This document shows positions 1-18,020 of a stretch of 18,499 bases of DNA, piece after piece (positions within the stretch are counted from its first letter, which is position 1; each line of letters begins with the position of its first letter). Both the position numbers and the translations under genes were made by a program. This DNA comes from Promethearchaeota archaeon (GTDB lineage Archaea > Asgardarchaeota > Lokiarchaeia > Sigyniarchaeales > SOKP01): the NCBI GenBank assembly GCA_048938025.1, contig JBHLMP010000026.1, forward strand, positions 1 through 18,499, in the 5' to 3' direction. The notes beneath the pieces were generated by a model. That model saw only the letters and a program-made list of their open reading frames with translations, had not been told where the DNA came from and did not search any database.

Positions 1-93
1 GAGATTGATTTGGAAAAAACAGTTGATATTTTAGATAAAATTGAGTCGGCTAAACCCCAAATGGAAAATTTAATATTACAGATTATCCAATAA
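1..93 (+). CDS. 3' end of a gene entering from the left edge (partial, product unknown)
   Basis: Frame 1 is open from base 1 (EIDLEKTVDILDKIESAKPQMENLILQIIQ) to TAA at 91-93, looks like an amphipathic helix, and overlaps the convergent PfkB gene end by 11 nt. Confidence 0.6.
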   Translation, partial: EIDLEKTVDILDKIESAKPQMENLILQIIQ

Positions 94-1171
94 AATCCTG
101 ATTATTTTCAAGAGCAAACGTGTTTATAAAATTTTGAAGTTCTTCTGGAGTAGGAGCTTGTTGCCTTATAATTTTGTATATTGCCAAATAAGTAGCATAA
201 TTTCCACATGAGCTAAGAATAGATTTTAGTTGATCAGAATTCTCTTTTTTAAGCAATTCATTTAATTTAAAGTTATTTTCTACAGCATCGTATAATTTTT
301 TTAAAAATCCTGCAGCGTAACAATCTCCAGCTCCTGTTCGATCTACTATTTCTGAGACTTCAACACCAGGAAAGTGAAGTTTAAAGAAATCAGTTATTAT
401 ATAAGAACCCCTACCTCCTGCGGTATAAACCCGGATTTTTGCATATGGTTTGAATTTTTCATCAACTTCTATTATTGATGAATGTTTATTTTTTAAAATA
501 ATATATGCATCTTTCAAATTAAGAAAAAAAAGATCGTATCTTTTCTTTATTAATTGAGTTAATTGTTGTAAAGTTTGAACTTTTTGAGTTTCAATATTAT
601 ATGCTGTGATTAAATCTAATTGAGAAGCTCTTTCAAATATTTCTATAAATTTTTTGGCAATAGGAGTACAAAAAATTATTTTTCCATGCTTAAATACAAC
701 AGTATCTACTTTTATTCCCTCAAAATTCATTTTATTTTTCAAGTTTGGAGCTAAATGGATTTTAGTAGTAAAACTAGACTTTATTATAGTGCTAACTGGA
801 GTGATTTCATCTATTTGAAAAACAGCCTCAGTATTAATACCTAATGATTTTAATTCATCATACATCCATTTACTTCCTCTTCCAATGATCGAAATTAGTT
901 TTGTTGGAATTCCCAATCTAGTGAGAAATTCACTTGAATTATTACCATTGCCTCCACGTTTAAAATAACAATGACCGATGATTTTTTTAGGTGTTTCTGA
1001 AAATCCACTTTTGATAACTTTCTCGAATATCTTGCGATTTAAATCATCGGGATTATATTTGATAAATTGACTTAATCGAGATACTATTTTTTCAACAAGT
1101 TGCTCATAAAAATCGCTTTCGTAATAAAGATCTAGATGCAGCTCACCTAGAACCAGTATTTCTTTTAACAT
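83..1171 (-). CDS. PfkB/ribokinase-family carbohydrate kinase
   Basis: N-terminal ILVLGELHLD strand, RGGNGNN..LTRLG (PfkB signature 1) and DRTGAGDCYAAGF (signature 2 with catalytic Asp and anion hole); GGAG upstream of the ATG. Confidence 0.9.
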   Translation of the reverse strand: MLKEILVLGELHLDLYYESDFYEQLVEKIVSRLSQFIKYNPDDLNRKIFEKVIKSGFSETPKKIIGHCYFKRGGNGNNSSEFLTRLGIPTKLISIIGRGSKWMYDELKSLGINTEAVFQIDEITPVSTIIKSSFTTKIHLAPNLKNKMNFEGIKVDTVVFKHGKIIFCTPIAKKFIEIFERASQLDLITAYNIETQKVQTLQQLTQLIKKRYDLFFLNLKDAYIILKNKHSSIIEVDEKFKPYAKIRVYTAGGRGSYIITDFFKLHFPGVEVSEIVDRTGAGDCYAAGFLKKLYDAVENNFKLNELLKKENSDQLKSILSSCGNYATYLAIYKIIRQQAPTPEELQNFINTFALENNQDFIG

Positions 1172-1202
1172 GTTAGTTCTCCATCATAAAATAAATCTTT
1201 AA

Positions 1203-1305
1203 CGCAGATGGAGGGAATCGAACCCCCGAGCGCTTTCGCGCACCGGCTCTCTATGTCATCAAAAAACTCTCGAGGCCGGCGTCTTACCAGCTAGGCTACA
1301 TCTGC
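1203..1305 (-). tRNA. tRNA-Ser(CGA) with a 20-nt intron at canonical position 37/38
   Basis: Reverse complement folds as a cloverleaf: acceptor GCAGATG/CATCTGC with discriminator G, D-loop AGCTGGTA, anticodon stem CCGGC/GCCGG with CT-CGA-G[intron]A, long variable arm GCGC-GAAA-GCGC, T arm GGGGG-TTCGATT-CCCTC. No CCA encoded. Confidence 0.93.
1249..1268 (-). other. tRNA intron (AGTTTTTTGATGACATAGAG)
   Basis: Removing these 20 nt restores a 7-nt anticodon loop CTCGAGA. Flanking GA repeats make the exact boundary slightly ambiguous; the canonical 37/38 position is assumed. Confidence 0.85.
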
Positions 1306-1350
1306 TTAAATGTGAAATTAAATAAAACTACTATTAATTTTAAAATGGAA

Positions 1351-1370
1351 TAGATATAAATTTCTTTCCT
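1351..1370 (-). promoter_or_regulatory. Putative archaeal BRE/TATA promoter for tRNA-Ser
   Basis: Minus strand reads AGGAAAGAAA-TTTATATCTA (purine-rich BRE-like element then TATA-like box) about 50 nt upstream of the mature tRNA 5' end. The AT-rich background limits certainty. Confidence 0.45.
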
Positions 1371-1392
1371 TTTTAAGGTTAAGAGAAACTAG

Positions 1393-1695
1393 TTATTTCG
1401 ATACTGGTACGTAGATTTTTAATTTTAAAGAGGGATCTAGTAATTTTATTAATCCTTCTTCTTCATATTGTTTAAATAATAATTTTACTGTTGAGACTCT
1501 TATATCATACTTTAATGCAATATCTGTTGCTAGAATGCTTTTCCTTTTTAATATTTCTTCTTTTAGATCTTTCTCAAGCTTTCTCGGAATGAATGCATCT
1601 CTCTCAACAATATTTATCTGCTTGGTTCTTCCATATTTTCTTCTTAGATTTAATGTTCCTTTTCTTACAATTAGTTTTTCTTCTTTCTCAGACAA
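1393..1695 (-). CDS. rps25e: 30S ribosomal protein S25e (eS25)
   Basis: 100-aa basic protein with Lys/Arg-rich N-terminus and a winged-helix core (ILATDIALKYDIRVSTVKLLFKQYEEEGLIKL...KIY) matching eS25; TTG start with GTGAT upstream. Confidence 0.82.
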   Translation of the reverse strand: MSEKEEKLIVRKGTLNLRRKYGRTKQINIVERDAFIPRKLEKDLKEEILKRKSILATDIALKYDIRVSTVKLLFKQYEEEGLIKLLDPSLKLKIYVPVSK

Positions 1696-1847
1696 ATAAA
1701 ATCACAAAATTTTCTCGAAGATGAGTATTTGAATAATTTGAAATAAAAAATATTTAAAATCTAATAAAATTTTTGATTTAATATTGAATTATAAATAAGA
1801 TAGATATTCCTAACCAAAATATAATGAGTTTTTAAGCTACAAGGAAA

Positions 1848-2486
1848 TTGAGGGAAGAAATTAATTTTAATGTAAAGAAAGAGAGACCAGAAGAGATTTA
1901 CCAGAACATTTTTGATTACTATACGGAACAAACAATTGTTCAATATGCTACTTCAAAAAGTATGAAAAAAATACAAGAAAAGATAACATTAAGAGTTCTA
2001 GAAATCTTAGATCTTAAAAATAAAAATTATTTTGTTTTAGATGCAGGCAGTGGACCAGGTTTTGCATCTATTTTTTTAAATTCAGTTGGATTTCAAAAAG
2101 TTATTGCTCTAGATTTAATCCCTGATTTTTTGAAATTTTTTGATCTTAAAGATGTGAATCCAATATTAGCTGATATGTGTTTTCTTCCATTTAGATCTCA
2201 TACTTTTGATGCTGTCATTTCAATTTCAGCTTTACAATGGATATATAGAGATATTAATAACAAAAGTATGGATTTGAAGTTAATAAATATGATAAAGTCT
2301 TTCTATAATGCTCTAAAGCCTAAATGTAAGGCAGTAATTCAGTTTTATCCTAAGAATAAAACTATTATGAAAAATATAGGAAAAATAATTGTGAAGAATA
2401 CCGATTTTAATGGCAATTTCATAATAGATAATCCAAATAATCCTAAAAAAAGAAAAATTTTCTTATTTTTGAAGAAAAATAAATAA
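1848..2486 (+). CDS. Class I SAM-dependent methyltransferase, Bud23/WBSCR22-like (candidate SSU rRNA m7G methyltransferase)
   Basis: Motif I VLDAGSGPG plus Bud23-type blocks RPEE, IQEKITLRVLEILDL, DM..LPFR..TFDAVISISALQW, QFYPKN and IIDNPNNPKKRKIFLFL; TTG start. Confidence 0.82.
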   Translation: MREEINFNVKKERPEEIYQNIFDYYTEQTIVQYATSKSMKKIQEKITLRVLEILDLKNKNYFVLDAGSGPGFASIFLNSVGFQKVIALDLIPDFLKFFDLKDVNPILADMCFLPFRSHTFDAVISISALQWIYRDINNKSMDLKLINMIKSFYNALKPKCKAVIQFYPKNKTIMKNIGKIIVKNTDFNGNFIIDNPNNPKKRKIFLFLKKNK

Positions 2487-2763
2487 CTTTTATAAACAAT
2501 ATTGCGTGAAAGAAAAATTATAGATTACTAATGTGACATCTTTTTTAATAAATTTGCCATATGTAATGAAATTTAAACTATTGTATCACTGTTATGCTTA
2601 ATGTTTATTATCTAATTGTAAAGATTTTTATTTATATGATTTATTATTTTTATACATTTTTCAAAAATTAATAAAAGCATATATACTATAAATGGGATCT
2701 TTAAGTTAACATATCCTATTTTTTCGTATAAAAAAAAATTTGGTATAAAAAACGGTAATAAAT

Positions 2764-5700
2764 ATGAATAGAATTTTTCATAAAAATACAAAATGCTTAA
2801 TTTCAGTTATTCTTTTGTCAATGCTCGTAGTAAGCTCTTTATCTACAATATTTCCAACGACGTCTAACAAAATGAACTCAAATTCTGATTTAGGAACTGA
2901 TCCATTAGATCCAATTGATGACAATTTAGAAGTTTCTGATACTTATCAAGTTGGTGATGAATATGAATTGGATGAGTGGTGGAATACTAGCTACAGATAT
3001 CGAATTGGTATTGAAATAGAAGAACTTGATGGTATAGATAGGTACGAACCTGTGGAACTTTTCTTGGAATTTGAAGAAAATACATATTATGAAGGTACTG
3101 AAAGAATTGTTGCATACTATGGACCTGGTAATTGGAGCGATCCTATACCTGTTCAGGTATGGAATGTTGAAAAATATAATGGTGTTTTTATTCAAAATTG
3201 TTCAGCTACCTTTATCGCGAGTGTTTCAGCAAATAACAATCAAACTTACTTCTTTTATTATAATGAGAATGATGATAATATAGAAACTGGCGATATTTAT
3301 GATACTGGTTTTGAAAGTGATTTTACTGGTGGGACAACTTTAACAGTTAATATTGCTGGAGATTCCGGATCTGATTATTCATTAATACTTCAAGAAGGTT
3401 ATGGTGTAAAAGTATTAAAAAAAGATGGTCTTGATATAAATTATCACCAAGCAGAATCATTAGCTCCAGAAAAGCAATTAACACATCCAAATTTAGTATT
3501 TCTAGCTCATATGGATGAAAATACAGGTAATATGGTTTATGATTCAACTGGTAATGTACCTTTAGGCGGTTATATCTCTGAGGCTACTTGGACATCTGGG
3601 ATCGTAAGATATGGATTACATTTTGATGGTTTAGATGATTATGTTGATTTTGGGGCTGAGTTAGAGTCTCCGGGTGATCCATTTCATGGAGCAACTAGAG
3701 AATTTACTATGACAGCTTGGATAAAACCTGATGATTTGAGCGATTCCTCAACAACTAATCATGGTACTCAGAACTGCTTCATGGCGAAAGCAAGTGATCC
3801 ATATAATGATAATTTTGAAATAGGTGTAAATACTAACGGCAAAATTCATGTATATCTTGATATGGATGGTAGAGATAGTCAATTTGATTTTGATCTTACC
3901 GGAACAGTTGAAGTAGATAAATGGAATTTTGTTGCCTTAAAAGTTGATTTAACAAAACCCAATTATAAAGTAGGAGTTAAAGTTAACGACGCTTCTTTTC
4001 AATATACAACCAATTGGGATGCTGGTAATGATATGGATGAAGCATATGGCAGCACTTTTTCAATTGGATCTTCAGAACATATAAACAATTATTTTGGCGG
4101 TAGCATTGATGAAGTTGCTTTTTATGATATTCCCCTTTCTGATGAAGATATTGAAGATTTCAAATATTTATCTGAACCTTCTGTAATCGATCAAATAACT
4201 CTACTTGTAAAGGGGGATGTGTTTTCTCGCTATCAAGTTGATTGGACTGAGACTTTTGATATGCATGTATCAGATATTTGTACTTTTTATTGGGATTATA
4301 ATCTATGGAATATTGAACGAAGTATATATTTTGATGGTCCATACTACGCAAATGAATCTGCCATGATTCCATTGAATACGCACTATAATTATTCGCTAAT
4401 TAATGACCATGCTTCATGTAGATACATCTATGATGGTATTATTGATATTGATATAACAGATCCAGACTTTACTGCTGAAGATTATACGATTGTCTATAAT
4501 TATCCGGATTTATCCAAAGATGCAATAGGAATTTTCGTATCGAACTATACATTAACTAATCCAAGTCAAATGAGCATGACCTATTTTAATGGTACCACAA
4601 AGTATTATGATAATACAATCGATTTTACCCCAGGAGTGAATAATGATCTTGACAATAGTGGCGGAACTGCTATTAATACATTGATTGTACAATTTTGGGA
4701 ATTTGTTGATTCTGTTCCTTATGTAGGTAATAATGAATTAATTTGGTATTTCAATAATGTTAGTTCTTCACTTAAAAACCCTGTTAATATCTATATTTAT
4801 GAGGAAGACAGTAGATTCTATAATATTGAAGTATACGTTCAAGATTCCGATGGTAGACCTGTTCCTGAAGCAACAATTACTATTTGGAACAATACTGCTA
4901 GTGCTACTGAATACCAATGGAACCAAGACACTGATACAGCTGGATGGACTACTTTCAAGCGATTTATTAATGGAACATACGTTGTAAACGCTTCCTATGT
5001 CAGATATGGACAAACTCTAACTATTACTTCTTCTCAAACTGTCGTAGATCTCGGAGATATCGTTGATGAAAAAGGCGTCTATACTATAAATTTCTTAAAC
5101 GTTGACCTGACATCTATTATTTTAAATTGTTCAAGATACTATCAAAATAATTATCAAGGACCATTACCAGGTGCTAAATTAAACTTTACATTTGATGATG
5201 GAACTGGACCAGTAGTACTTAATGGTTATGAAACGACTAATGCAACAGGTGCAGCGGTTTTTCACTGGAAGGATACAACTTCTGGTAATGTAACCTTTTC
5301 CATTGAATGGTTTGGTTATCCACAATATCCTATTTCCACACCAGCTGATAATATCCCCGGTGATATCACTAAAATCAGTTTAAATTTCACGGAATATGCT
5401 TGGCATGAAGTTAATGTAACTCAAGGAACAGACTTTCAAACCCATTTAGAAGTCCATGACGAAGGAACACAATCAAAAGTAGTTGGAGAAACTATATCAT
5501 TATGGGTTTACTTTTATTTCACTGAAAATAACACAAATCCAATGCCAATGGAAGATCCTCTTACAATTACAATGGATCTAAAAGATGGTACAAGGATAAT
5601 TAATGAAAATCCATTAATCTTTAGTCCTGGAACTGGAGCAGGTAATTATAGCATTACATTTGATACTTCACAACCAATAGAAACAGGAGGAGAATCATGG

Positions 5701-7065
5701 CTTTCAGGTACATATTCAGTTTTAATAACTGCATCAAAACCTGGTTTTGACACTGCGTTTAATTCAACCGAGATTACATTATTAGATATACCTACACGAT
5801 TTAGCGCTAATGAAAGTGAATCATATGCAAACTGGCAAGAACAACTTATTTTTGACGTTCATTTAGAATATGAGGATTCTGGTGTTTGGTATGATTTAGA
5901 TAATGCCTTGGTTTCATATTACGTATTTCGACACGAGGAAATTTTCGGAACTCTAACTTGGTATGGTTCTGGTGGTTTATACAGGTTAGAAATGGAAAGT
6001 ACTGATTTTCCTAAAACGGGTGAATATGATTTAGTTATATCAGCAATCATACAAAATTATGAAACAAAAACAATTAGCCAACACGTTGTAATCCTTGAAA
6101 TCAGAACGTTTTTAAACAATTCGATCTCAATTGCTCAAAGTGAATCAGTGTATTTTGGAGTAGAAAAGATTTTTTACTTTAATTATACTGAAGCTATAAC
6201 TGGTTTGGGATTATCTGGTGCTGAAACAGCTTATTTTGATTGGGAGAAGCAAGATGACCTAGGCAATCGTTTAGCTGGTGGTTATGATGTTCCTCTGGTA
6301 AATGTAATTGATGGAATATATGCTCTTGATTTTGATACAGAGACCTTAGATATTGCAACTTATTTCTTTGATATCACTATTAAAAAAAATAATTATGAAG
6401 ATAGAAGAGCAACCCTTTATCTTTATATTACAAATAGAGATTTTACCCCAATAGAAAAAAGAAAATACGAAGTTGTATCTGGAGAAACATTAATAATTAC
6501 ACTAAACATTACAGACTTTAAAACTCATGAACAATTAGATATCGATATTGCTTATGTAACATTTAGGGGTCAAACCTTCAACTTCACTGGAAGTGGAGGA
6601 ATTTATACAGCTAGAATTACGAATATTCCTGATGCATTTATTATGCCAGAGACATTATTAGCAACAATTACAATTATAAGAGAAAATTATACAACAGCAG
6701 AAATCCAAATTACAATTGTTGTTCAAATGGTAGAGATTTTTCCAGGAATGCCATTATTCTATTTCTTAATGATCGTTGTCGCAGTGGGTGCTGTTGCTGG
6801 TAGTTTAGTTACATATCGATATGTACAGCAACGCAGGATTCCTACATTTGTTAAGAAAGCCAGAGAGATGAAAAGTAACATCAAAGGAAGAAAGTCAATT
6901 TCAGATTCACTTTTGTACCCTTCTAAAGAGCAGTATATAATAAGGAGATTAGGAGATAAATGGGAAATGCTAGGATTGTCATTAGAAGATATACTAGGAA
7001 TCGAAAGTAAGAAACGAAAAAAGATGTCAGAAATTAGTGAAGAATTTGAAGGAGGTGGGTTATAA
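2764..7065 (+). CDS. Large single-pass cell-surface glycoprotein with LamG/ConA-like domain and Ig-like beta-sandwich repeats
   Basis: Signal-like N-terminus (KNTKCLISVILLSMLVVSSL); WWNTSYRYRIGIEI motif; LamG signatures GLHFDGLDDYV, FTMTAWIKP, WNFVAL, FGGSIDEVAFYDIPLS (about nt 3490-4170); VQDSDGRPVPEATITI and TDTAGWTTF carboxypeptidase-regulatory/prealbumin-like repeat; about 27 NxS/T sequons; TM helix FYFLMIVVAVGAVAGSLVTY; about 80-aa basic cytoplasmic tail. Confidence 0.88.
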   Translation: MNRIFHKNTKCLISVILLSMLVVSSLSTIFPTTSNKMNSNSDLGTDPLDPIDDNLEVSDTYQVGDEYELDEWWNTSYRYRIGIEIEELDGIDRYEPVELFLEFEENTYYEGTERIVAYYGPGNWSDPIPVQVWNVEKYNGVFIQNCSATFIASVSANNNQTYFFYYNENDDNIETGDIYDTGFESDFTGGTTLTVNIAGDSGSDYSLILQEGYGVKVLKKDGLDINYHQAESLAPEKQLTHPNLVFLAHMDENTGNMVYDSTGNVPLGGYISEATWTSGIVRYGLHFDGLDDYVDFGAELESPGDPFHGATREFTMTAWIKPDDLSDSSTTNHGTQNCFMAKASDPYNDNFEIGVNTNGKIHVYLDMDGRDSQFDFDLTGTVEVDKWNFVALKVDLTKPNYKVGVKVNDASFQYTTNWDAGNDMDEAYGSTFSIGSSEHINNYFGGSIDEVAFYDIPLSDEDIEDFKYLSEPSVIDQITLLVKGDVFSRYQVDWTETFDMHVSDICTFYWDYNLWNIERSIYFDGPYYANESAMIPLNTHYNYSLINDHASCRYIYDGIIDIDITDPDFTAEDYTIVYNYPDLSKDAIGIFVSNYTLTNPSQMSMTYFNGTTKYYDNTIDFTPGVNNDLDNSGGTAINTLIVQFWEFVDSVPYVGNNELIWYFNNVSSSLKNPVNIYIYEEDSRFYNIEVYVQDSDGRPVPEATITIWNNTASATEYQWNQDTDTAGWTTFKRFINGTYVVNASYVRYGQTLTITSSQTVVDLGDIVDEKGVYTINFLNVDLTSIILNCSRYYQNNYQGPLPGAKLNFTFDDGTGPVVLNGYETTNATGAAVFHWKDTTSGNVTFSIEWFGYPQYPISTPADNIPGDITKISLNFTEYAWHEVNVTQGTDFQTHLEVHDEGTQSKVVGETISLWVYFYFTENNTNPMPMEDPLTITMDLKDGTRIINENPLIFSPGTGAGNYSITFDTSQPIETGGESWLSGTYSVLITASKPGFDTAFNSTEITLLDIPTRFSANESESYANWQEQLIFDVHLEYEDSGVWYDLDNALVSYYVFRHEEIFGTLTWYGSGGLYRLEMESTDFPKTGEYDLVISAIIQNYETKTISQHVVILEIRTFLNNSISIAQSESVYFGVEKIFYFNYTEAITGLGLSGAETAYFDWEKQDDLGNRLAGGYDVPLVNVIDGIYALDFDTETLDIATYFFDITIKKNNYEDRRATLYLYITNRDFTPIEKRKYEVVSGETLIITLNITDFKTHEQLDIDIAYVTFRGQTFNFTGSGGIYTARITNIPDAFIMPETLLATITIIRENYTTAEIQITIVVQMVEIFPGMPLFYFLMIVVAVGAVAGSLVTYRYVQQRRIPTFVKKAREMKSNIKGRKSISDSLLYPSKEQYIIRRLGDKWEMLGLSLEDILGIESKKRKKMSEISEEFEGGGL
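7051..7057 (+). promoter_or_regulatory. Shine-Dalgarno site GGAGGTG for the 7065 gene
   Basis: GGAGGTG lies 7 nt before the ATG at 7065, inside the last codons of the upstream gene; stop and start overlap as TAATG. Confidence 0.85.
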
Positions 7066-8168
7066 TGCCAATTGGATTAGTAGTTATGAGATGGGATGAA
7101 AGAGTTGGTACTGAAATATTGGCAAAATATCCACCAGAAATAAACGTAACTGATAAAACACTTATGCAAGTATATAGCACACATGAATATAGCGGAGAGT
7201 CAGGAATGATTAGTTTAATGATTGGTTCATTAAATATCGCATCATACTACACTGGTCCTGAAAGGGGCTTTTACATTTTATTACTTTTGAATATAGATGA
7301 TGATCCTGATGCCTATGAAGGCGGATTAGCTGACACTTCTAGGATAATTTTACAAAATCTTGAGGATGATTCATATTTACAATTGATTCCATCACTTTTT
7401 CGAAGGCTATCTGTTTATCCTACACTTAATAACGAACAACGATTAGCTATGACATATCAAGACGAAATTAAACGTATGATTGTTAATCGTCTTAGAGATG
7501 AAGGTGTTGTTTCGAAATCTGAATTAATGGTTTGGTTAAAAGATAGGTATAAACAAGGTTTTGTTGATCTAGAAGGAGTTTTAATCGAACTAATTAAACG
7601 GGAAATCATTAAAGAGGCTTCAGTAAAAGGAATGCCATCTGAATTAATATTTCTCACCAATGATATTTTGATGATGCGAGTTCCACCGGTTAAACTTCTC
7701 ACTGATCCTGCTGATCGTGGATTACCCTCTCAACTTGTTAGCGATTACAGAACAGAGTCTAAAAAATATTTCCAAAATTACCGCCCAACCGAAGAAGATA
7801 ATCTCAGAATCATTGACGTCATAATAAATCCACAGGTTTATGAAACAATGCGTTTATTAAGAACTGCAATTGTTACTAAGAACGATCTAGAGAAACTCAA
7901 AAAGAAAGGCGTTGATGATGTTGATGAGGTGTTAAAGATGTTATGGGATAATCAAATGATCCAAGTCTTCCAAGATGAGCGTAATAACGAGTATTATGCC
8001 CTTATAACTGATTTCTATTTGGACCTTATCTTTCCGAAATATCTTCTTAACATCATAAAAACAGAATACGAACAAAAATCAAAAGCAGATCAAGTATTAG
8101 TTGAGTACCTTACTGTTCTTGAGAATGCTTATACTAATTTAAAAGCAGCTATGAAATCGAAAGAGTAA
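7065..8168 (+). CDS. Conserved-looking Asgard-type protein: predicted longin/uDENN-like N-domain plus two predicted winged-helix domains
   Basis: MPIGLVVMRWDERVGTEILAKYP resembles the uDENN/NPR2 beta1-G-beta2-P start; b-b-a-b-b-b-a pattern over about 115 aa; two wHTH-like blocks (IKRMIVNRLRDEGVVSKSEL..LEGVLIELIKREII and VYETMRLLRTAIVTKNDL..VDEVLKMLWDNQMIQV). The gene is certain, the domain call is inferred. Confidence 0.7.
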   Translation: MPIGLVVMRWDERVGTEILAKYPPEINVTDKTLMQVYSTHEYSGESGMISLMIGSLNIASYYTGPERGFYILLLLNIDDDPDAYEGGLADTSRIILQNLEDDSYLQLIPSLFRRLSVYPTLNNEQRLAMTYQDEIKRMIVNRLRDEGVVSKSELMVWLKDRYKQGFVDLEGVLIELIKREIIKEASVKGMPSELIFLTNDILMMRVPPVKLLTDPADRGLPSQLVSDYRTESKKYFQNYRPTEEDNLRIIDVIINPQVYETMRLLRTAIVTKNDLEKLKKKGVDDVDEVLKMLWDNQMIQVFQDERNNEYYALITDFYLDLIFPKYLLNIIKTEYEQKSKADQVLVEYLTVLENAYTNLKAAMKSKE

Positions 8169-8184
8169 ATTTTTAATAATTAAG

Positions 8185-8203
8185 TTTTTTTATTTTTTTT
8201 TTT
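8185..8203 (+). terminator. Archaeal oligo-T terminator of the 2764-8168 operon
   Basis: T7-A-T11 tract starting 17 nt after the stop at 8168. Confidence 0.6.
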
Positions 8204-8299
8204 GTCTCATTCTATTGTTTCTTGTTTTATTCAAAACATTTTTCTACTTTTCAAGATTCTTTGACTTGATTAAAATTAAAAATATGATGTGAGAAAAAG

Positions 8300-9619
8300 T
8301 TGGACTCAACAGATCAATATTGGGAAACTCCCGAAGCATTGATGGATGGTATTGATTTAGAAAAATATATTATTGCATCATACATTGTCAAACGTCCTCG
8401 TGGAATGAATGTAAATTATTTGGCTCGTTTTGCCGCGATTGAACAATCGACTGGGACCTGGATTCGTGTGCCTGCTGAGACTGCCGAAGTAAGGAAGCAT
8501 CATGTAGCCCGAGTTCTCGGAGTCTATGAGCTTCCTATGTATGAATTCGTATTGCCCCCAAAAGATGAATTAAGGGAGAGAATATATTTTATGCAAGTCG
8601 GATTTCCAATTGTGAATATTAAAAATTTAGGCATTCCAATGTTGTTTACTACAGTTATTGGAAATATTAGCATCACACATGGCTTGAAGCTAGTAGATCT
8701 TTCATTTCCTAAAGCATGGTTAGAAGATTTTAAAGGTCCTAAGTTTGGGATTGATGGGATTCGAAAGCTTATGAACGTACCAGAACGCCCTCTTTTGAAT
8801 AATATGGTTAAACCCTGTACTGGGCATACTTGTGACGTCGCAGCAGATTTAGTTTACCAAGCGGCTGTAGGAGGTTGTGATGTAGTGAAGGATGATGAGT
8901 TAATATCTGATCCTTCCTTCAATACTTTAGAAGATAGAATAACGGCGGTAATGGAAGCTGTAGATCGAGCTGATTCTGAGAAAGGAGAAAAGACATTATA
9001 TACAATTAATGTTACTTCTAAATTCCCAGATATGTTTGAAAAGGCTGATAAGATGATAGAATTAGGAGCAAATGCGTTAATGATAAACTACATAGCTACG
9101 GGGTATGAGGCTCTTAGACAGCTTGCCGAAGATCCTTCAATTAAAGTGCCGATTCTTGGTCATATGGATTTCGGTGGTTGTATGTTTGGTGGAGAATGGA
9201 CAGGGATGACCAGTATGTTAACGTTTGGCAAATTACCACGAATTTGTGGGGCTGATAGCGTTGTAATTCCGGCACCTTATGGTAAAGCTGAGATAATAGA
9301 AGAACGATACGAGCAAAACCTCAAGGCTTTACGATATCCATTTCAACATATTAAACCTACATTACCTATGCCAAGTGGAGGGATAACGCCAGGCATGGTG
9401 GAAAAAACCATAAAAGAGGCAGGTAAAGATATCCTTATTGGAAGTGGTGGAGGAATTCATAGCCATCCTGATGGCCCAATAGCAGGAGCTAAAGCGTTCA
9501 GACAAGCGATAGATGCAGTAATGCAAGGAAAGAATGTAAGAGATGTGGCAAAGGAGAAAAAAGAATTGGGAATAGCTCTTGGTGTATGGGGTAGCGGAAA
9601 AACCCAATTAGTAGAATAA
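8300..9619 (+). CDS. RuBisCO-like protein (form IV RLP)
   Basis: AIEQSTGTW, FKGPKFGIDGIR, KPCTG, GGCDVVKDDE (carbamylated-Lys/Mg motif), PMPSGG, GGGIHSHPDG. Carboxylase-specific residues are altered (KPC rather than KPK; GHMDFGG rather than HRAMH). TTG start. Confidence 0.93.
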   Translation: MDSTDQYWETPEALMDGIDLEKYIIASYIVKRPRGMNVNYLARFAAIEQSTGTWIRVPAETAEVRKHHVARVLGVYELPMYEFVLPPKDELRERIYFMQVGFPIVNIKNLGIPMLFTTVIGNISITHGLKLVDLSFPKAWLEDFKGPKFGIDGIRKLMNVPERPLLNNMVKPCTGHTCDVAADLVYQAAVGGCDVVKDDELISDPSFNTLEDRITAVMEAVDRADSEKGEKTLYTINVTSKFPDMFEKADKMIELGANALMINYIATGYEALRQLAEDPSIKVPILGHMDFGGCMFGGEWTGMTSMLTFGKLPRICGADSVVIPAPYGKAEIIEERYEQNLKALRYPFQHIKPTLPMPSGGITPGMVEKTIKEAGKDILIGSGGGIHSHPDGPIAGAKAFRQAIDAVMQGKNVRDVAKEKKELGIALGVWGSGKTQLVE

Positions 9620-9631
9620 CTAATTTATTAA

Positions 9632-9639
9632 TTTTTTTT
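9632..9639 (+). terminator. Putative oligo-T terminator after the RLP gene
   Basis: T8 tract starting 13 nt after the stop codon. Confidence 0.4.
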
Positions 9640-9762
9640 CATATAGTACCTTCTTTTGAGTAATTTACAGAAATAATTATTATTTAAGGAATAAGCGATG
9701 CAATTAAAAATTACCGATCATATCCTAATCATAACATTCTAAGCATAATATTTTGAAGGAGT

Positions 9763-10686
9763 ATGTTAGAAGAAGCAGGGCTTAAACTAAAAAAAATTAA
9801 GTGCCCTATGTGTGGCAAAAAATTTGTTCCGAAATCTTTTCATCGTGAAAAGGTGAAATATGAATTTGGGGGTACAATTTATAGGATAAAAATACCAAAA
9901 TTTAAAAATTCAAATGAAAATGGTCGTCCTTATAATATAGTTCGTCGATCTTGGGTAACTTTTTGCCCTAAATGTAAATATATTATTAAATTTGCTGCAG
10001 AGGTTGGTAAAAAAGAATCGCTAGCAGAATTCAGCTCCTTCCTACACTTAAAGGAATTCAAAGAAAATGGTAATATCTACGAATATAATTTTTATAATTT
10101 TGAAAAACCTTATAAGGAAACTTTATACTACAATAAAATATTAGTGGAGGGATTGCGAAATAGTATTTTGAATACTCTTAAAGACTTAAGATTAGAACAC
10201 TGGGGAAAGTTATATAAGATGTGGAGGATTGAAAACGTTATCGACTCATTCAAGTTTCTAATTAGATTTTTTTCGCTTATATTGAAACATTTCGAAATTC
10301 CAAACATTAAAATTAGCAATGCAAAGTATTCTGAACAGATTAAAAACTTAGACATATCAGAAGATCTAAAGAAGGATTTACTAGAAATAGAAAAACTTAG
10401 AAAGAAAGTAATTTATGAATATTACGATTTAAATAAAGTGGATGAGAATTTTATTCAAAATATATTTTTTAATTTAACGTTCGACCTTATATTTAAAAAG
10501 TTAGAACCGATGGGATTAAATAGCATTTATAATAAAAAAGAATCCGAAATAATAGACAACGAGATTTTATATTCAGAATTAAAAAAAATATTTGGCAACT
10601 ATTTAGATGAGCAATTAGGATTAGGAGAATATGCTAATGAATTTGTAATTTCTTTATTCAAGAAGTTAAATATAACTCTAGCTTAA
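9763..10686 (+). CDS. Hypothetical protein with N-terminal split Zn-ribbon and helical, possibly HEPN-like, C-terminal domain
   Basis: CPMC and CPKC pairs 50 aa apart; GAAGGAG just upstream of the ATG; C-terminal ISEDLKKDLLEIEKLRKKVIYEYYDL resembles a degenerate HEPN Rx4H helix. Confidence 0.7.
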   Translation: MLEEAGLKLKKIKCPMCGKKFVPKSFHREKVKYEFGGTIYRIKIPKFKNSNENGRPYNIVRRSWVTFCPKCKYIIKFAAEVGKKESLAEFSSFLHLKEFKENGNIYEYNFYNFEKPYKETLYYNKILVEGLRNSILNTLKDLRLEHWGKLYKMWRIENVIDSFKFLIRFFSLILKHFEIPNIKISNAKYSEQIKNLDISEDLKKDLLEIEKLRKKVIYEYYDLNKVDENFIQNIFFNLTFDLIFKKLEPMGLNSIYNKKESEIIDNEILYSELKKIFGNYLDEQLGLGEYANEFVISLFKKLNITLA

Positions 10687-10743
10687 AAAGTATTGTTAAA
10701 AAACCATCTCTATTTGATGAAAAAGATAGCAGATGAATAAAAC

Positions 10744-11712
10744 TCATTTTATTTTAATATAAGAATCATTTAGAATAACTCTTATTTTTGAATTAAACTC
10801 AACAATTCTGATATTTTTAGCTAGTTCATTGCCTCTTAAATCCAAATATTCTAGAGATGGTAAGGATTTTAAATAATTAATATTCTCTAAATCAGTAATG
10901 TTATTGTTTGTTAGTATGACGTTTTTTAATTTTACAAATTGGCTCAATTTTTTAATATTTTTAATTTGATTATTTGAAAGATCTATTTTTTCTAAATTGT
11001 TTAAGTTGAATAAACCAATTATCTCAGAAAGCTTTTTTATATTATTTTTCCAACCCCATGGAGTCCCTTTTACTTCATATTCCATGTAATCTGATAAATC
11101 TAATTCCTTTATTAAAGCAGTTTTGGGATCCAATTCATAATATACATTTGGAAACTGTTTTATCAAATTTCGAATTGTCAAGTAATTAATCAAGATTTCT
11201 CCCAATTCTTTATTAGAGACCTCGTTAAACTGTCTTTCTTTAAATACTCCTTTTAGAGTTTTTTTAAATTTTTTATTTTGAATGGCTTTATCTTTATTCA
11301 GATATTTGATTTTTCTAATTTTTTTTAGTTGATCAATTAAAATTGTTTTAGCTTCTTTATTATTAATTTTTTTTAACGTTTTGATTATTGTTATTAAGCA
11401 TTCATAATTCGATTCATGCTTAATGGCCCATTTTAAAGGAATTAGTGCTTTTTCATTAGTAAATTTCTTTTCTATAATTTTTGCGGCAGCATTTCTAATG
11501 TTTCCATTTGAATCAGAAATTAATGCATTTTCCAAGATAGAAAAGGTTTGCCCATCAAATATTCCAATTTTTTCCAAACTTTCAATGGATTCTACTCTAA
11601 CATTTTCATTTTCACTATTTTCAATTAATGAAATAAGGAGATTAAATGCTGTATGTTTATCTAAGTTATGATTCTCAAATTCCTCGCAAATCTTTTCGGG
11701 GTTTAAAGTCAT
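10744..11712 (-). CDS. HEAT-repeat plus leucine-rich-repeat protein
   Basis: HEAT-like units (ENENVRVESIESLEKIG; DSNGNIRNAAAKII) and SDS22-like LRRs (LEKIDLSNNQIKNI, LKNVILTNNNITDL, LEYLDLRGNEL). Confidence 0.85.
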   Translation of the reverse strand: MTLNPEKICEEFENHNLDKHTAFNLLISLIENSENENVRVESIESLEKIGIFDGQTFSILENALISDSNGNIRNAAAKIIEKKFTNEKALIPLKWAIKHESNYECLITIIKTLKKINNKEAKTILIDQLKKIRKIKYLNKDKAIQNKKFKKTLKGVFKERQFNEVSNKELGEILINYLTIRNLIKQFPNVYYELDPKTALIKELDLSDYMEYEVKGTPWGWKNNIKKLSEIIGLFNLNNLEKIDLSNNQIKNIKKLSQFVKLKNVILTNNNITDLENINYLKSLPSLEYLDLRGNELAKNIRIVEFNSKIRVILNDSYIKIK

Positions 11713-11736
11713 GCTAATTTTTATATAAAACTCATT

Positions 11737-14196
11737 TTATATAATTTTAATGTCTAAAGAGATTCTATCTTTAAATTTAACAAATAATTTCCATATATTA
11801 TTTACTGGATCAAGGTTGGAATAGTTAAAATTATATTTTTCAATTTTTTTATTTTTTGGAAGTTTAAGAATAAGAAATCCTTCTCTAATCCCTATTAACT
11901 CAATTTCAATATTTAGTTCATTAGATTCAACTTTATACTCATAGCTTTTTATTTCACAACATCCTTGAGTAATATGTAGGTTTGTAGAGAGCAAGAGTGG
12001 TAAATTATAGAATTTTCTATTTACTGGAATTAAATTCAGGTATTTACACGCATGAGGGTAAATTCTTTCTAACTTTAAAGAATCATGAATTTTATATTCC
12101 CCTAAATATTTATGGTCCCAAAAATCATAAATATAGAATTTTTCCAGATTATTAGGATGATTTGGAATCATCTCAGATATTTTTAATTCTCTTGAAATTG
12201 AATGATCTTCCCAATTAATAATCGCAACTAAATATCTTTTTCCAATAATTTCATTGGTTTCAAGCATATAGATAGAAGGCAATTCTGAAGTGAATGCATC
12301 AATTACAATAGTATCATATTCATTTGAGTTATAAGGAGGGATAAGCAATTTTGCATCATTGATTTCATCATTAGTGAGTTTAGTCATATCATCTGAAATT
12401 AAGATTTGTCCTCCAGATAATCCAAAGATAGTTATTTGCAATTTTATTTCTTCATTTGTTAATCCTGTATCAGTTCTTCTAATCATCAAGCAATCAGGAT
12501 CATTGATCCAAAAATATTTATGCATAAAAGAACGATAGAGGATATTAAGTAATGCTTCCATTAAACCTGGTTGAGGTACACCTACTTCAATTTCATAATT
12601 AGCTCTCCATTGAGGAGCAGTATCTTCACTTATTCTCATAGCATCTACTAACCCAATACATGGTCCAAGTGGAGCACCACAGCCCAAGAGAAAAGAGTCA
12701 TTAGTAATAGCATCTCTTATCGTTTTTAGGCCATTATAATATAATTGGGCCCTAGTTAACGTTTTATCTTGATAATCTGCATGAAAAGGAACCGCAGCAT
12801 GAAGAAAATCGATTTTAAAAAACTCTATCATTGGAAGTTCAGATTTAGAGTAAATAAATAAAAGATTTTTAAAAAAATCGTTTAAGTAATTAAGTACTTC
12901 TTTATTTGATAGATCTAAACCGTATTGGGATGTATTCCAATTAAAACATACTCTTAATAGTTTATTTGACTTTTTAAGAAACCAATCTCGATGATCTTTA
13001 AATAAGTTAGATTTTTTTACAGCAAAAAAGGGTGCAGTCCATATACCACCTTTAAATCCAGACTTCTTTATTTGATCAAATAACCAGCTTAAACCCTCTG
13101 GGAACTTATCGTTGATATGACTGTAATCTCCTATTTTAGTAAAGTATCCATCGTCTAATTGGATAAAATCAATAGGTATATTTTCTCTATTTTTTTTAAA
13201 AAAATTCAAGTTTTTAATCATTTCTTCTTGGTTGATATTAGTAAAATAATAATACCAACTACACCATCCAGTTGGAATTTTACTTATTCTTTTTTCTTTG
13301 ATCAAGGTTTTAACAATTTTAGCATAATCAGTTAAACCATAGTAGCCAAGATTTTTTGTTTTAAGGCATATAAAAAGTTCTTCTGAAGAATCAATGGACG
13401 ATTTTTGCATTTCAATACCATCCATGCACCCAAAAGCTGTAAGTAATTTAATTTCATCAGAATTTTCATAATCTAATATTATTCTGGTAAATTGATCCTT
13501 AAAAGATACAAAACTTAAAATTAAGGTATTAGTTGATTGTAAATCTGTGATAGCTGTACAGAATTCACTGTAAAATCTCCCTTCGATTTTATAATCTTGA
13601 TTATCATACATTAAATTAAACAATTCTGTTGATAGCCCTTTATTGTCTTTTTTATTACCAAAAAATATTCTACAAGGGCTCCAACTCTGAAACCCGTTCT
13701 TAAACCAAGTTAAATTATCTAGATTAGTTGGAGTATCACTCCCCGACAGCCACAACTTACTATTTTTAATAGTTAGTGGAGCTAAACTATGTACTGCTAA
13801 CGGATTTTTAGTTTTATCGTTAATATCTATTAATTTAATTAAAATAAATTGCTTATTATTATAAATTTTAAACTGGATTTTATAAAATATTTCTTGTTCT
13901 TTATTATTATATGAAATAAAAATAATCTTCATACCTATTCCTATTGAATCGGTAACTTTTTCAACTTTACTATTAAAATTATATTTTGTAGAACTAGATT
14001 CTATTAAATTATTATTAATATCCTTATGAAAATTCAATGATGAATAACAATTTTTAAGGCAACACTTATTTCCATTATCTAAATCAAAATAGATTGAATA
14101 AGTTCCTCGATTCTGTCCATTTTTATAAAATTTAAAGCCAACAATACCATTATCAACCTCAAATATATCATCATTGTTTTGAATTATATTTAGCAA
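11737..14196 (-). CDS. Alpha-galactosidase, glycoside hydrolase family 36 (clan GH-D)
   Basis: PTGWCSWYYYF, FIQLDDGY, GIWTAPF, FFKIDFL (nucleophile Asp), AMRISEDT (acid/base Asp), WINDPDCL; no signal peptide; TTG start with AGGGG upstream. Confidence 0.9.
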   Translation of the reverse strand: MLNIIQNNDDIFEVDNGIVGFKFYKNGQNRGTYSIYFDLDNGNKCCLKNCYSSLNFHKDINNNLIESSSTKYNFNSKVEKVTDSIGIGMKIIFISYNNKEQEIFYKIQFKIYNNKQFILIKLIDINDKTKNPLAVHSLAPLTIKNSKLWLSGSDTPTNLDNLTWFKNGFQSWSPCRIFFGNKKDNKGLSTELFNLMYDNQDYKIEGRFYSEFCTAITDLQSTNTLILSFVSFKDQFTRIILDYENSDEIKLLTAFGCMDGIEMQKSSIDSSEELFICLKTKNLGYYGLTDYAKIVKTLIKEKRISKIPTGWCSWYYYFTNINQEEMIKNLNFFKKNRENIPIDFIQLDDGYFTKIGDYSHINDKFPEGLSWLFDQIKKSGFKGGIWTAPFFAVKKSNLFKDHRDWFLKKSNKLLRVCFNWNTSQYGLDLSNKEVLNYLNDFFKNLLFIYSKSELPMIEFFKIDFLHAAVPFHADYQDKTLTRAQLYYNGLKTIRDAITNDSFLLGCGAPLGPCIGLVDAMRISEDTAPQWRANYEIEVGVPQPGLMEALLNILYRSFMHKYFWINDPDCLMIRRTDTGLTNEEIKLQITIFGLSGGQILISDDMTKLTNDEINDAKLLIPPYNSNEYDTIVIDAFTSELPSIYMLETNEIIGKRYLVAIINWEDHSISRELKISEMIPNHPNNLEKFYIYDFWDHKYLGEYKIHDSLKLERIYPHACKYLNLIPVNRKFYNLPLLLSTNLHITQGCCEIKSYEYKVESNELNIEIELIGIREGFLILKLPKNKKIEKYNFNYSNLDPVNNIWKLFVKFKDRISLDIKII

Positions 14197-14345
14197 AATT
14201 AAATTCCCCTATCTCTAGAAACCTATATAATACTAGTCTTTAATTGTAATTCTAATAAATTATTTCTTGTTTTACTTACTATTAAATAGAGTCTGATTAA
14301 AAGGGTGATAAATTGCAAAGAGGTTATTTTAATTCGTCATTCAAT

Positions 14346-15548
14346 CTAATTGGCAAAACTAAAAGGAGGAAATTTTTTTCTCTTCGTAAAGTTCTCTTTC
14401 AATTTAGCCTTTAATTCATTAAATGGTTGTAGATTCCCTGAAAAGGATGTTTCTGTTAATGGATTTATGTTTTTATCTAATAATTCCTCAACTTTTTCAA
14501 CTTTTTCTAAATTACCTTCAGAAAGTAAATTTAAAAAATAATCATTTTGATATTTTCTAAAAGTAATAAATCGATATTTTTGAAAGCCTAATTTAACTGC
14601 AATCCAACGAGGGATAGCACCTGTATTTCCTTGAGTATTAGCGGCAATAGCTTCGATCCTGGCAGTAAGCATCGACTCTTTCATTTCTTTTTCTTCATTA
14701 GGATCTTCATAGTTTCCGGGGATTTCAATATTCAGCTTATCATCACCTAATAAAAGGGAAACAACACCAATGGACATAGAAGATAAGCCAAGATAATCAA
14801 TTCTGATTGTATCCTCTACATAACCAAGATCCTCATCTCCAAATACTTCTTGCAAATTAACGTACGCTTCTAAAATGGATTTCATTATAGGTCGAAAATC
14901 CTTCTCAAAAAATTCTTTCTCAGGTTCACTTAATTTATCAACGTCTCTTTCTCCAACTAAATCTTTAAAGTATTTTGCCATTTCTTCTAAAAGCCACTTT
15001 CCCTTTTTATCAGGAAATTTTCCATAAACTAAATATATAATGTTATGTTTCTCATAAAATTGACATTTCTCTTCTTCATTCTTTTCTTCAGATATTAGAA
15101 GCATTTTATCTAAATCTCCACCTAAAAAACCAGTGGCTATAAAATCTAAGTTATTTGTTAATTCTAAAAGATACTCATAGTTTTGATTACTACAATAAAG
15201 TGGAGTTCGCTCAACAGAAGTAACACCGAGTAACTTTACATATTCACCTTTGGTTAATTCAATTTTATCTTTCTCTATATCTATACTTATTGGTTTTTTT
15301 TCTTTAATTTTTACTTTATCTTTAAGTTTAGTAGATAGGGTTTCAGTCTTAGTTTCAAATTGTTTAGGTTTAGTCTTTATCTGATCATTTTCTGAAAGAT
15401 AATCATATAAATCAGTAAGAAATGTACCACAATTACGACACATTGAATCCTTGGGATAAGGTTTCACATGTCTATATCCACATTTCTTGCATACAATCTC
15501 ATCTTTTCTTTTATCTGAATGGAATAATAACTTTGGAATAAATATCAA
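14346..15548 (-). CDS. Hypothetical protein: N-terminal Zn-ribbon, Lys-rich linker, two possible longin/roadblock-like alpha/beta domains
   Basis: CKKCG..CRNCG; low-complexity K/T/E linker; two segments with a b-b-a-b-b-b-a hydrophobic pattern; TTG start 21 nt after the hisC stop. Confidence 0.6.
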   Translation of the reverse strand: MIFIPKLLFHSDKRKDEIVCKKCGYRHVKPYPKDSMCRNCGTFLTDLYDYLSENDQIKTKPKQFETKTETLSTKLKDKVKIKEKKPISIDIEKDKIELTKGEYVKLLGVTSVERTPLYCSNQNYEYLLELTNNLDFIATGFLGGDLDKMLLISEEKNEEEKCQFYEKHNIIYLVYGKFPDKKGKWLLEEMAKYFKDLVGERDVDKLSEPEKEFFEKDFRPIMKSILEAYVNLQEVFGDEDLGYVEDTIRIDYLGLSSMSIGVVSLLLGDDKLNIEIPGNYEDPNEEKEMKESMLTARIEAIAANTQGNTGAIPRWIAVKLGFQKYRFITFRKYQNDYFLNLLSEGNLEKVEKVEELLDKNINPLTETSFSGNLQPFNELKAKLKENFTKRKKFPPFSFAN

Positions 15549-15569
15549 CTCGCTTTGTGATTTTTAGAA

Positions 15570-16655: not shown

Positions 16656-16774
16656 ATCTTTTACCCTTTATAGGTTTGAAAATTTTAATTTTTTTGAGAA
16701 TATCATAATAACTCGATAATTTATGCTAGAGAATAATATAATTTAATTTTTGTCTTTTGTTCTCTCTTAACCTT

Positions 16775-17740: not shown

Positions 17741-18020
17741 GCTTAGATTTAAATGAAAATATACATAAAAATTTTTTTAAATTAATTTTTGTTTTATATA
17801 CAACTAAAGAATCGAATATTTTAAGCTTTTTTTCACTTCTAAATTAGATTAATATATTCTAATAACTTAGAAAATTTACAGAAAAAGCATTTTAAAATGT
17901 ATATTTCTTAATTATCGTTGATTGAAAATTCGCTTAATGAAAACTCAATTTTTAAATTTATTAAAACTATTAATTTTATATTAAGATAGTAACAACTAAA
18001 ATACTTATAATTAAAGAGAG

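Follow-up and report, generated by a model that had tools for sequence, protein, structure and literature searches.

A catalytic-domain-only archaeal member of the Bud23/WBSCR22 methyltransferase family in a Promethearchaeota genome

Introduction

Bud23 of yeast, called BUD23 or WBSCR22 in human and RID2 in plants, is the Trm112-dependent methyltransferase that makes 7-methylguanosine (m7G) at position 1575/1639 of 18S ribosomal RNA (rRNA). It is one of the four classic partners of Trm112, and in the accessible text of Bourgeois et al. 2017 (PMC5372719) and van Tran et al. 2018 (PMC6144793) it is the sole one reported without an archaeal homologue: no significant Bud23 homologue was found in archaeal genomes, and the corresponding nucleotide of archaeal 16S rRNA is not known as modified. 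The later study extends the absence of a Bud23 orthologue from Haloferax volcanii to archaea generally (PMC6144793), and the same group ties this absence to the missing m7G in the archaeal 16S rRNA studied (PMC5372719, PMC6144793). Here we describe a gene for a Bud23-like class I S-adenosylmethionine (SAM)-dependent methyltransferase, comprising the catalytic domain only, at 1848..2486 (+ strand; the end coordinate includes the stop codon) of an 18,499-nucleotide stretch of DNA from a Promethearchaeota archaeon (GenBank assembly GCA_048938025.1, contig JBHLMP010000026.1, positions 1 to 18,499), which is referred to as the window.

The accessible parts of PMC5372719 describe a beta-zipper geometry (beta3/beta4) for Trm112-methyltransferase complexes, the removal of the basic C-terminal extension of Bud23 for the crystal structure, and the helicase Dhr1 as a partner of the yeast protein. 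Class I methyltransferases activated by Trm112 are also known from archaea: Hvo_0019-Trm112 of Haloferax volcanii (6f5z) and Trm11-Trm112 of Archaeoglobus (6zxw). The Trm112 holoenzymes of H. volcanii are described, in the accessible text, as activated through the beta-zipper (PMC6144793). An archaeal rRNA guanine-N7 enzyme has been described as well, TK0008 of Thermococcus kodakarensis, which forms m7G2354 in 23S rRNA; Tsai et al. 2025 present it as the first enzyme reported to make m7G in archaeal rRNA, and Trm112 goes unmentioned in the accessible text (PMC12124282). TK0008 differs from Bud23 in belonging to an unrelated family (UPF0020 / N6_N4 DNA-methylase-like, Trm14-like) and in having a large-subunit target.

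The protein encoded in the window shares with Bud23 the class I fold and the family-specific motifs over the whole catalytic domain, and it is predicted to pair with Trm112 through the same beta-zipper surface. Unlike Bud23, it has no basic C-terminal WBS_methylT extension (PF12589), its host archaea have no nucleolus, the genome contains a second paralog, the gene is paired with that of ribosomal protein eS25, and the Trm112 of the genome is a long form of 207 amino acids (aa).

An archaeal protein of the Bud23 family

The window, whose G+C content is about 24-35%, corresponds to contig C15 of a metagenome-assembled genome (MAG) of 3.52 Mb in 88 contigs (96.7% complete, 5.1% contamination). 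The methyltransferase gene encodes 212 aa and begins with a TTG codon that aligns with the initiator methionine of the homologues. Pfam recognizes only generic domains in the protein, Methyltransf_11 (E 1.1e-9) and Methyltransf_25 (E 2.6e-8). Nothing in NCBIfam exceeds the curated cut-offs: BioC (TIGR02072) scores 49.9 bits against a cut-off of 184.95, and PRK05785 (NF004452) 39.9 bits against 207. The AlphaFold2 (AF2) model, based on a 42-row alignment, has a predicted local distance difference test score (pLDDT) of 93.9 and a predicted template-modelling score (pTM) of 0.91, with an alternating strand-helix pattern.

An earlier sequence-only reading of the window had claimed a similarity to yeast Bud23 that goes beyond generic SAM motifs and is collinear over the whole protein. 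The database searches agree with this claim. With phmmer, the methyltransferase matched seven chains among all sequences of the Protein Data Bank (PDB; E ≤0.01), five of which are of the Bud23/BUD23 type (7wtn_CB, 2.1e-27; 4qtt_B, 5.8e-26; 7wtw_q, 2e-20; 9xab_1, 3.1e-20; 6g4w_q, 4.8e-20); the remaining two are generic methyltransferases with E-values of 4.7e-5 and 1.8e-3. The HMMER alignment to yeast Bud23 (7wtn_CB, 4qtt_B) is collinear, pairing residues 13-209 of the query with residues 3-200 of the chain, and contains all the motif pairs listed in that reading: RPEE; IQ.K.TLR.LE.L.L; PFR...FDA.ISISA.QW; QFYPKN; and the tail D.P...K..K..L.

The fold leads to the same family. In a Foldseek search of the PDB with the AF2 model, the eight top-ranked matches are Bud23 chains of yeast or human (4qtu, 4qtt, 6g4w, 7wts, 7wtt, 7wtw), with E-values from 7.9e-19 to 4e-16 and template-modelling scores by query (TMq) of 0.72-0.83, and from rank 9 onward the matches are generic methyltransferases (E 2e-10 or weaker, TMq about 0.58). 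The Trm112-activated archaeal enzymes are remote structural matches and not members of the Bud23 family: 6f5z_A has E 3e-9, TMq 0.60 and 14% identity, and 6zxw_G has E 2.8e-9. In the ESM Atlas, archaeal clusters of the protein's own kind come first, followed by eukaryotic clusters named 18S rRNA (guanine-N(7))-methyltransferase (TM 0.80-0.86 by query).

The best matches are reciprocal. BUD23 of Saccharomycodes (P0336), searched against the genome of the window, finds the methyltransferase open reading frame (ORF) at 1.7e-27, its paralog at 1e-17 and then a match at 4.7e-4; BUD23 of Clytia (P0338) finds the same two proteins at 7.4e-22 and 2.7e-18, and the next match at 6.1e-6. In the other direction, the best solved relatives of the archaeal protein are Bud23. 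Identity is 33-35% to the yeast Bud23 chains (Foldseek) and 39% to Saccharomycodes BUD23, and archaeal members of the family are 29-39% identical to eukaryotic ones.

The C-terminus of the protein corresponds to residue ~200 of the 275 of yeast Bud23, where the catalytic domain stops, and the Pfam scan of the 212 aa gave no match to PF12589 (WBS_methylT), the eukaryotic C-terminal domain; the extension is absent, as the sequence-only reading had it. By sequence, reciprocal best matches, fold and the tree described below, the methyltransferase belongs to the Bud23/WBSCR22 catalytic family as a genuine archaeal member. Because PF12589 is lacking and the protein ends at yeast residue ~200, it is filed as a catalytic-domain-only archaeal member and not as eukaryote-type Bud23.

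Distribution of the family

A search of 5.8 billion proteins returned 519 matches at E ≤1e-5 among 729 candidates. The best 120 of these 519 are 173-223 aa long and 57-96% identical to the query, and their named sources are MAGs of Promethearchaeota, Lokiarchaeia, Hod-, Heimdall-, Thor- or Odinarchaeota. Five of the best 120 bear the automatic Joint Genome Institute (JGI) name '18S rRNA (guanine1575-N7)-methyltransferase', and some automatic JGI names of relatives read UbiE. The NCBI labels probably overstate the taxonomic range of the family.

Among 400 sampled genomes of the window's GTDB phylum, 151 contain a match at the cut-off of E 1e-10, nearly all of them in one order. The gene was found in 126 of the 134 genomes of the window's own family, f1 (E down to 1e-138), and in the other families of the same order: in the single genome of f2 and in 13 of 14 genomes of f3 (both at about 1e-36 to 1e-50), and in all four of f4 (about 1e-20). 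Further matches come from f5 of the same class (2/3 genomes), from f27 (3/4) and from one genome of f32 (G397, about 1e-22). No match at this cut-off was found in f13 (0/31), f16 (0/22), f19 (0/19), f15 (0/12) or f18 (0/12), and none in f9 (0/3), f21 (0/6), f7 (0/2) or f6 (0/2). The retention of the gene in nearly all genomes of its own family and of the sister family f3 demonstrates purifying conservation. A genome of the same genus, G191, contains an extra, decayed copy with one TGA and three TAA codons within the match (contig C2, 54746-55150, + strand), ~5 kb from the intact copy at 49156-49779. We also observed that proteins ~60% identical to the query carry Hod-, Hermod-, Thor-, Odin- and Heimdallarchaeota names in NCBI record titles, while the GTDB-based sample puts high-scoring orthologues almost wholly in one family/order; the public MAG labels look inconsistent.

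An exhaustive search of 1.84 billion cluster representatives recovered 650 proteins at E ≤0.001, 212 at 1e-10 and 13 at 1e-30. PF12589 was sought in 125 of the 150 listed representatives, those of at least 184 aa. It is carried by 32 of the 125, all at least 251 aa long and hence eukaryote-type, and by none of the scanned representatives of ~190-245 aa. We then built an archaeal profile from 58 short members outside the window's own clade, and its matches fall into tiers: proteins of Micrarchaeota (Micrarchaeia, Norongarragalinales) at 1e-58 to 1e-70, proteins of Promethearchaeota (Lokiarchaeia, Sigynarchaeum) at 1e-42 to 1e-62, and typical full-length eukaryotic BUD23/RID2 at about 1e-40 to 1e-51. 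Weaker matches, down to 2e-12, come from a few legume BUD23 entries that are divergent, fragmentary or isoforms, and the best generic methyltransferases appear at 1e-16 or weaker. The ESM Atlas adds a Nanobdellota cluster. The family, with members of ~200 aa, is archaeal but patchy: besides one Asgard order, it is present in DPANN and in a small number of other Asgard lineages.

Phylogeny and shared residues

The relationship to eukaryotic Bud23 was analyzed with IQ-TREE (LG+C20+F+G4 PMSF) on 76 rows and 203 columns: 16 eukaryotic rows, 54 archaeal rows and six generic methyltransferase outgroups, including the genome's own Trm9-like protein. This tree replaced a first quick tree, which was dropped because it had a single very long outgroup and an unreliable root inside eukaryotes. 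Fragments of less than 184 aa and representatives with a match in two stretches, mostly intron-broken eukaryotic models, had been removed before the first tree, and the rows of the final tree are a hand-picked subset of its clades.

The 70 ingroup rows, comprising the archaeal family and eukaryotic Bud23, are split from the six outgroups with moderate support (93/89), and the query does not cluster with generic enzymes of the Methyltransf_11/BioC kind. The 16 eukaryotic rows are monophyletic (100/99) on a stem of 0.89. The query groups with the A copies of the sister families in an 'A clade' that has 11 rows (97/93), and the Micrarchaeota rows form a clade of their own (99/95). Along the backbone, the eukaryotic clade joins about 11 archaeal ones in a polytomy. 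Forcing the eukaryotes and the A clade together costs 7.24 log-likelihood units (p-AU 0.251), so that on this polytomous backbone the grouping is unrejected but also unrecovered. Of the phylogenetic position expected by the sequence-only reading, the separation from generic methyltransferases stands, but the tree singles out no archaeal clade as sister to eukaryotes. The family-level relationship of the archaeal proteins to eukaryotic Bud23 is solid.

At 20 positions the same residue occurs in at least 85% of both the 16 eukaryotic and the 54 archaeal rows. Seven of these common positions lie outside the generic SAM motifs (Q43, S125, S127, Y167, P168, F187 and K203), and their residues are found in only one or two of the six outgroups. 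Also preserved are motif I (GxGxG) and an acidic residue that follows beta2: at least 93% of archaeal rows and 100% of eukaryotic rows have D65, G67, G69, G71 and D89.

The genome encodes a second Bud23-like paralog of 215 aa, on the - strand of contig C81 at 353-1000 (= L003:353-1000; also L086, L087, L088 and L097). Its best PDB match is likewise Bud23 (7.8e-16), but, unlike in the A copy, the match begins at about residue 56 and leaves the N-terminal RPEE segment unmatched; the paralog is also less distinct from generic methyltransferases, with PH0226 (1ve3) matching at 5.4e-11. It belongs to a separate 'B clade' of 14 rows (99/99). Paralogs A and B occur together in most genomes of the order. 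In the sister families f2 and f3 the B copy stands in tandem right after the A copy, downstream of a divergent eS25 gene. This order suggests an old tandem A/B duplication followed by relocation in the window's own family.

The predicted Trm112 partner

The sequence-only reading had noted that no trm112 gene lies in the window, which is correct: the only PF03966 match of the genome (27.6 bits) is a 207-aa protein encoded elsewhere, on the - strand of contig C48 at 74541-75161 (= L001:1372-1995). In this long Trm112, an insert of ~125 residues separates the halves of the zinc-knuckle. The best 120 of its 760 matches are 63-100% identical to it (the top one being the genome's own protein) and nearly all 207 aa long; many families of the phylum have full-length relatives. 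The AF2 model (pLDDT 81) has extra strands and three long helices, and a Foldseek comparison with eukaryotic TRMT112 gives weak matches (E 3e-3, TM 0.22/0.36).

We predicted the complex of the methyltransferase with this Trm112 in three runs, with both alignments supplied, alongside three controls. The median interface score (ipSAE) is 0.89 (0.90, 0.89 and 0.89 in the runs) against 0.01 for the best control; the pLDDT of the partners is at least 91, and contacts agree between runs in at least 94%. The calibration mark was reached by 116 of 157 solved complexes and by 2 of 215 mismatched pairs, counts that are only rough guides for predictions with own alignments. In the model, residues 104-117 of the methyltransferase face residues 8-13 and 167-173 of Trm112, and this interface reproduces the beta3/beta4 zipper described in the accessible part of PMC5372719. 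Co-folding with the genome's Trm112, proposed in the sequence-only reading as a check, yields a predicted interface of the canonical kind and supports binding of the methyltransferase to the single Trm112 of the genome. The co-distribution of the long Trm112 and the methyltransferase was considered as evidence of a specific partnership and rejected, since the two do not co-occur exclusively.

Pairing with the eS25 gene

The gene of ribosomal protein eS25 (100 aa; PF03297 Ribosomal_S25, E 8.6e-7, 29.6 bits against a cut-off of 28.8) lies at 1393..1695 on the - strand, divergent from the methyltransferase gene. Between the two is an A+T-rich spacer of 152 bp (1696..1847, no strand), which presumably holds both promoters. 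The conservation of this arrangement was examined in the best 80 of 116 relatives found with a 17-row alignment; all are of Promethearchaeota type and from species-representative genomes, and their methyltransferases are 48-91% identical to the query. The eS25 gene is directly upstream on the opposite strand, at a gap of 95-184 bp, in 80/80 of these loci. The other flanks vary: a pfkB gene is present in 34/80 and a LamG protein gene in 17/80. The same eS25-methyltransferase pair was found in one metagenome locus. In other families of the phylum, a divergent eS25 gene is followed by the A copy and the B copy in tandem in 4/12 loci, namely in G130 of f2 and in G135, G138 and G143 of f3. Protein eS25 belongs to the head of the small subunit, the domain that holds the target of Bud23. 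The linkage is suggestive of a small-subunit role, within the limits of a set of related genomes.

A metagenome scan with a Micrarchaeota alignment kept 80 loci, of which ~7 (L098-L104) are family members and the rest generic methyltransferases. On two Micrarchaeota-type contigs, L098:165-3609 and L099:3-3165, two same-strand genes of PmbA/TldD metallopeptidases accompany the Bud23-like gene, with overlapping stop and start codons. Both loci are without ribosomal neighbours and so give no independent support from synteny.

Proposed function and alternatives

To judge from its relatives and gene neighbourhood, the protein probably depends on Trm112 and uses SAM to methylate N7 of a guanine in the head of the small-subunit (16S) rRNA during 30S maturation. 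It would form a heterodimer with the single Trm112 of the genome by pairing of its beta3 strand with a strand of Trm112, bind SAM by the conserved class I motifs, and transfer the methyl group to N7 of the conserved guanine of the small-subunit rRNA head that is equivalent to G1575 of yeast 18S rRNA and to G1338 in E. coli. What the analysis shows is membership in the family, the fold, the conservation and the pairing with the eS25 gene, along with a predicted Trm112 interface; the substrate, the modified position and any assembly role are what we only infer.

Several points weigh against this function. The high score of the complex may reflect memory of, or likeness to, the solved Bud23-Trm112 structures 4qtt and 4qtu. 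The long Trm112 also occurs in families in which no methyltransferase match was found (f9, 3/3 genomes; f21, 6/6; f7, 2/2; f6, 2/2); Trm112 is a hub with several partners, which this non-exclusive co-distribution fits. The linkage to eS25 is limited to one order, whose genomes are kin and not independent; eS25 is not near the methyltransferase gene in 8/12 loci of other families (G134 of f3 and the loci of f4, f5, f27 and f32), and in the two Micrarchaeota-type loci without ribosomal neighbours the gene follows two PmbA/TldD genes. The paralog is 35% identical to the methyltransferase, so the family has diversified and the targets of the two copies may differ. A search of the 96.7% complete MAG for 16S rRNA (RF01959) gave no match, and a look-up of RNA runs listed none with the sequence. 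The target guanine is universally conserved, and its presence therefore cannot discriminate between the hypotheses. The accessible texts of PMC5372719 and PMC6144793 report no m7G at this 16S position in the archaea analyzed so far; the organisms they cover are all outside the lineages that carry the gene. In eukaryotes it is the Bud23 protein, and not the methylation, that matters for 40S assembly, through eukaryote-specific partners, according to the accessible part of PMC5372719. An assembly role of this kind is not simply transferable to archaea.

Some of these points would also fit an enzyme of the Bud23 family that binds Trm112 and modifies something else, such as another rRNA position, a tRNA or a translation protein, with specificity for G1575 arising later. 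Diversification into at least ~11 deep archaeal clades, with A and B paralogs in most genomes of the order, is of a kind that usually accompanies a change of target, and the Micrarchaeota-type copies have no ribosomal gene neighbours. The lack of reported m7G at the 16S position in the archaea studied is consistent with such a change (accessible texts of PMC5372719 and PMC6144793), as is the activation of many methyltransferases with varied substrates by Haloferax Trm112 (accessible text of PMC6144793). A different substrate is nevertheless rather unlikely: eukaryotic and archaeal members have the seven family-specific positions beyond the SAM motifs in common, the N-terminal segment starting at RPEE lines up with yeast Bud23 from its residue 3 on, which speaks for a shared substrate pocket, and the adjacency of eS25 in 80/80 loci points to the small subunit. 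The idea that the protein is a generic enzyme of the BioC/UbiE/Methyltransf_11 kind, methylating small molecules or lipids and similar to Bud23 by its Rossmann fold alone, is the least credible of all. Bud23 is ahead of every other solved methyltransferase, the E-values differing by over 15 orders of magnitude in the sequence search and by roughly 6-8 in Foldseek, and the tree split (93/89) already disfavours the idea. What speaks for it are the Pfam result, limited to Methyltransf_11/25, the UbiE names that some relatives carry at JGI, and BioC and PRK05785 as the best NCBIfam rows, although their 49.9 and 39.9 bits are far below the cut-offs of 184.95 and 207.

A further alternative concerns the origin of the gene. 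The archaeal genes might not be ancestral, the catalytic domain of eukaryotic Bud23 having moved into Asgard archaea and DPANN, or between them; in that case the gene would be uninformative about ribosome biogenesis before eukaryotes, whatever its activity. The patchy occurrence, in 151/400 genomes of the phylum, nearly all of one order, with none among the 31, 22 and 19 genomes of f13, f16 and f19, could be read in this way, as could the presence of the gene in distant DPANN lineages and the polytomy at the root and backbone of the tree. We regard such a transfer as quite improbable, because the 16 eukaryotic rows form one clade (100/99) that has a long stem (0.89), stands beside many deep archaeal clades and contains none of them. 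The archaeal members are also just 29-39% identical to the eukaryotic ones, the scanned archaeal-type representatives are all without PF12589 (its 32 carriers among 125 are all at least 251 aa long), and the genes have conserved archaeal neighbourhoods and lie on contigs as long as 2.3-3.3 Mb.

Methylation of 16S rRNA by the Trm112-bound enzyme, the function we favour, allows a wider scenario that we put forward tentatively, with somewhat more doubt than belief. Bud23-Trm112 would be an archaeal invention inherited by eukaryotes: Asgard archaea of the Lokiarchaeia type and some DPANN would place m7G on the P-site guanine of 16S rRNA with a minimal Bud23 and a two-domain Trm112, the gene being co-regulated with eS25. 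The C-terminal extension and the assembly checkpoint would have been added later, and the A/B pair would reflect a second Trm112-dependent RNA methylation.

Relation to earlier reports

According to the accessible text of Birikmen et al. 2021 (PMC8481954), a survey of ribosome biogenesis factors, none of the eukaryotic factors is exclusive to Asgard archaea; Bud23 goes unnamed in its main text. In Supplementary Table S5 of that study, BUD23 appears in the pre-LECA (last eukaryotic common ancestor) column of the unfiltered set and in the LECA column of the filtered set, as far as the column identities can be taken from the header line. In a preprint of October 2026 (PMC13734099), three Heimdallarchaeia proteins belong to a cluster of eukaryote-like Trm112; the accessible text names neither Bud23 nor WBSCR22. 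Full-text literature searches, whose coverage leaves out most subscription journals and the supplements of other Asgard papers, found no paper describing an archaeal Bud23 family. Some automatic JGI/KEGG-derived annotations already give members the Bud23 name.

The archaeal catalytic-domain-only Bud23-like proteins are a new addition to a known enzyme family. They contradict the statement, repeated by one group, that archaea have no Bud23 homologue, and a conserved archaeal family would revise the picture of Bud23 as absent from archaea. They also turn two questions into testable ones, namely whether the P-site guanine of 16S rRNA carries m7G in these archaea and whether the eukaryotic modification was inherited from archaea, and they offer a minimal Bud23 for biochemistry. 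The interest is tempered by the enzyme kind being known, by the annotations that already name it, and by a tree that does not resolve a sister relation between Asgard archaea and eukaryotes.

Other genes in the window

On the far side of the eS25 gene, a gene of a pfkB-family kinase occupies 83-1171 (- strand). On the other side of the methyltransferase gene, 2764-7065 (+) encodes a 1433-aa protein with a LamG domain (Laminin_G_3), weak Big_1 and CarboxypepD_reg matches and a C-terminal hydrophobic stretch; the start of the next ORF, at 7065-8168 (+; 367 aa, no Pfam match), overlaps its stop. A homologue of the RuBisCO large subunit is encoded at 8300-9619 (+; 439 aa, PF00016, E 2.5e-47), with no small subunit nearby. 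This homologue and the pfkB kinase may represent a RuBisCO context of the nucleotide-salvage type. On the - strand, a 322-aa protein that combines HEAT repeats with leucine-rich repeats (10744-11712) adjoins an 819-aa GH31/melibiase-like glycosidase (11737-14196).

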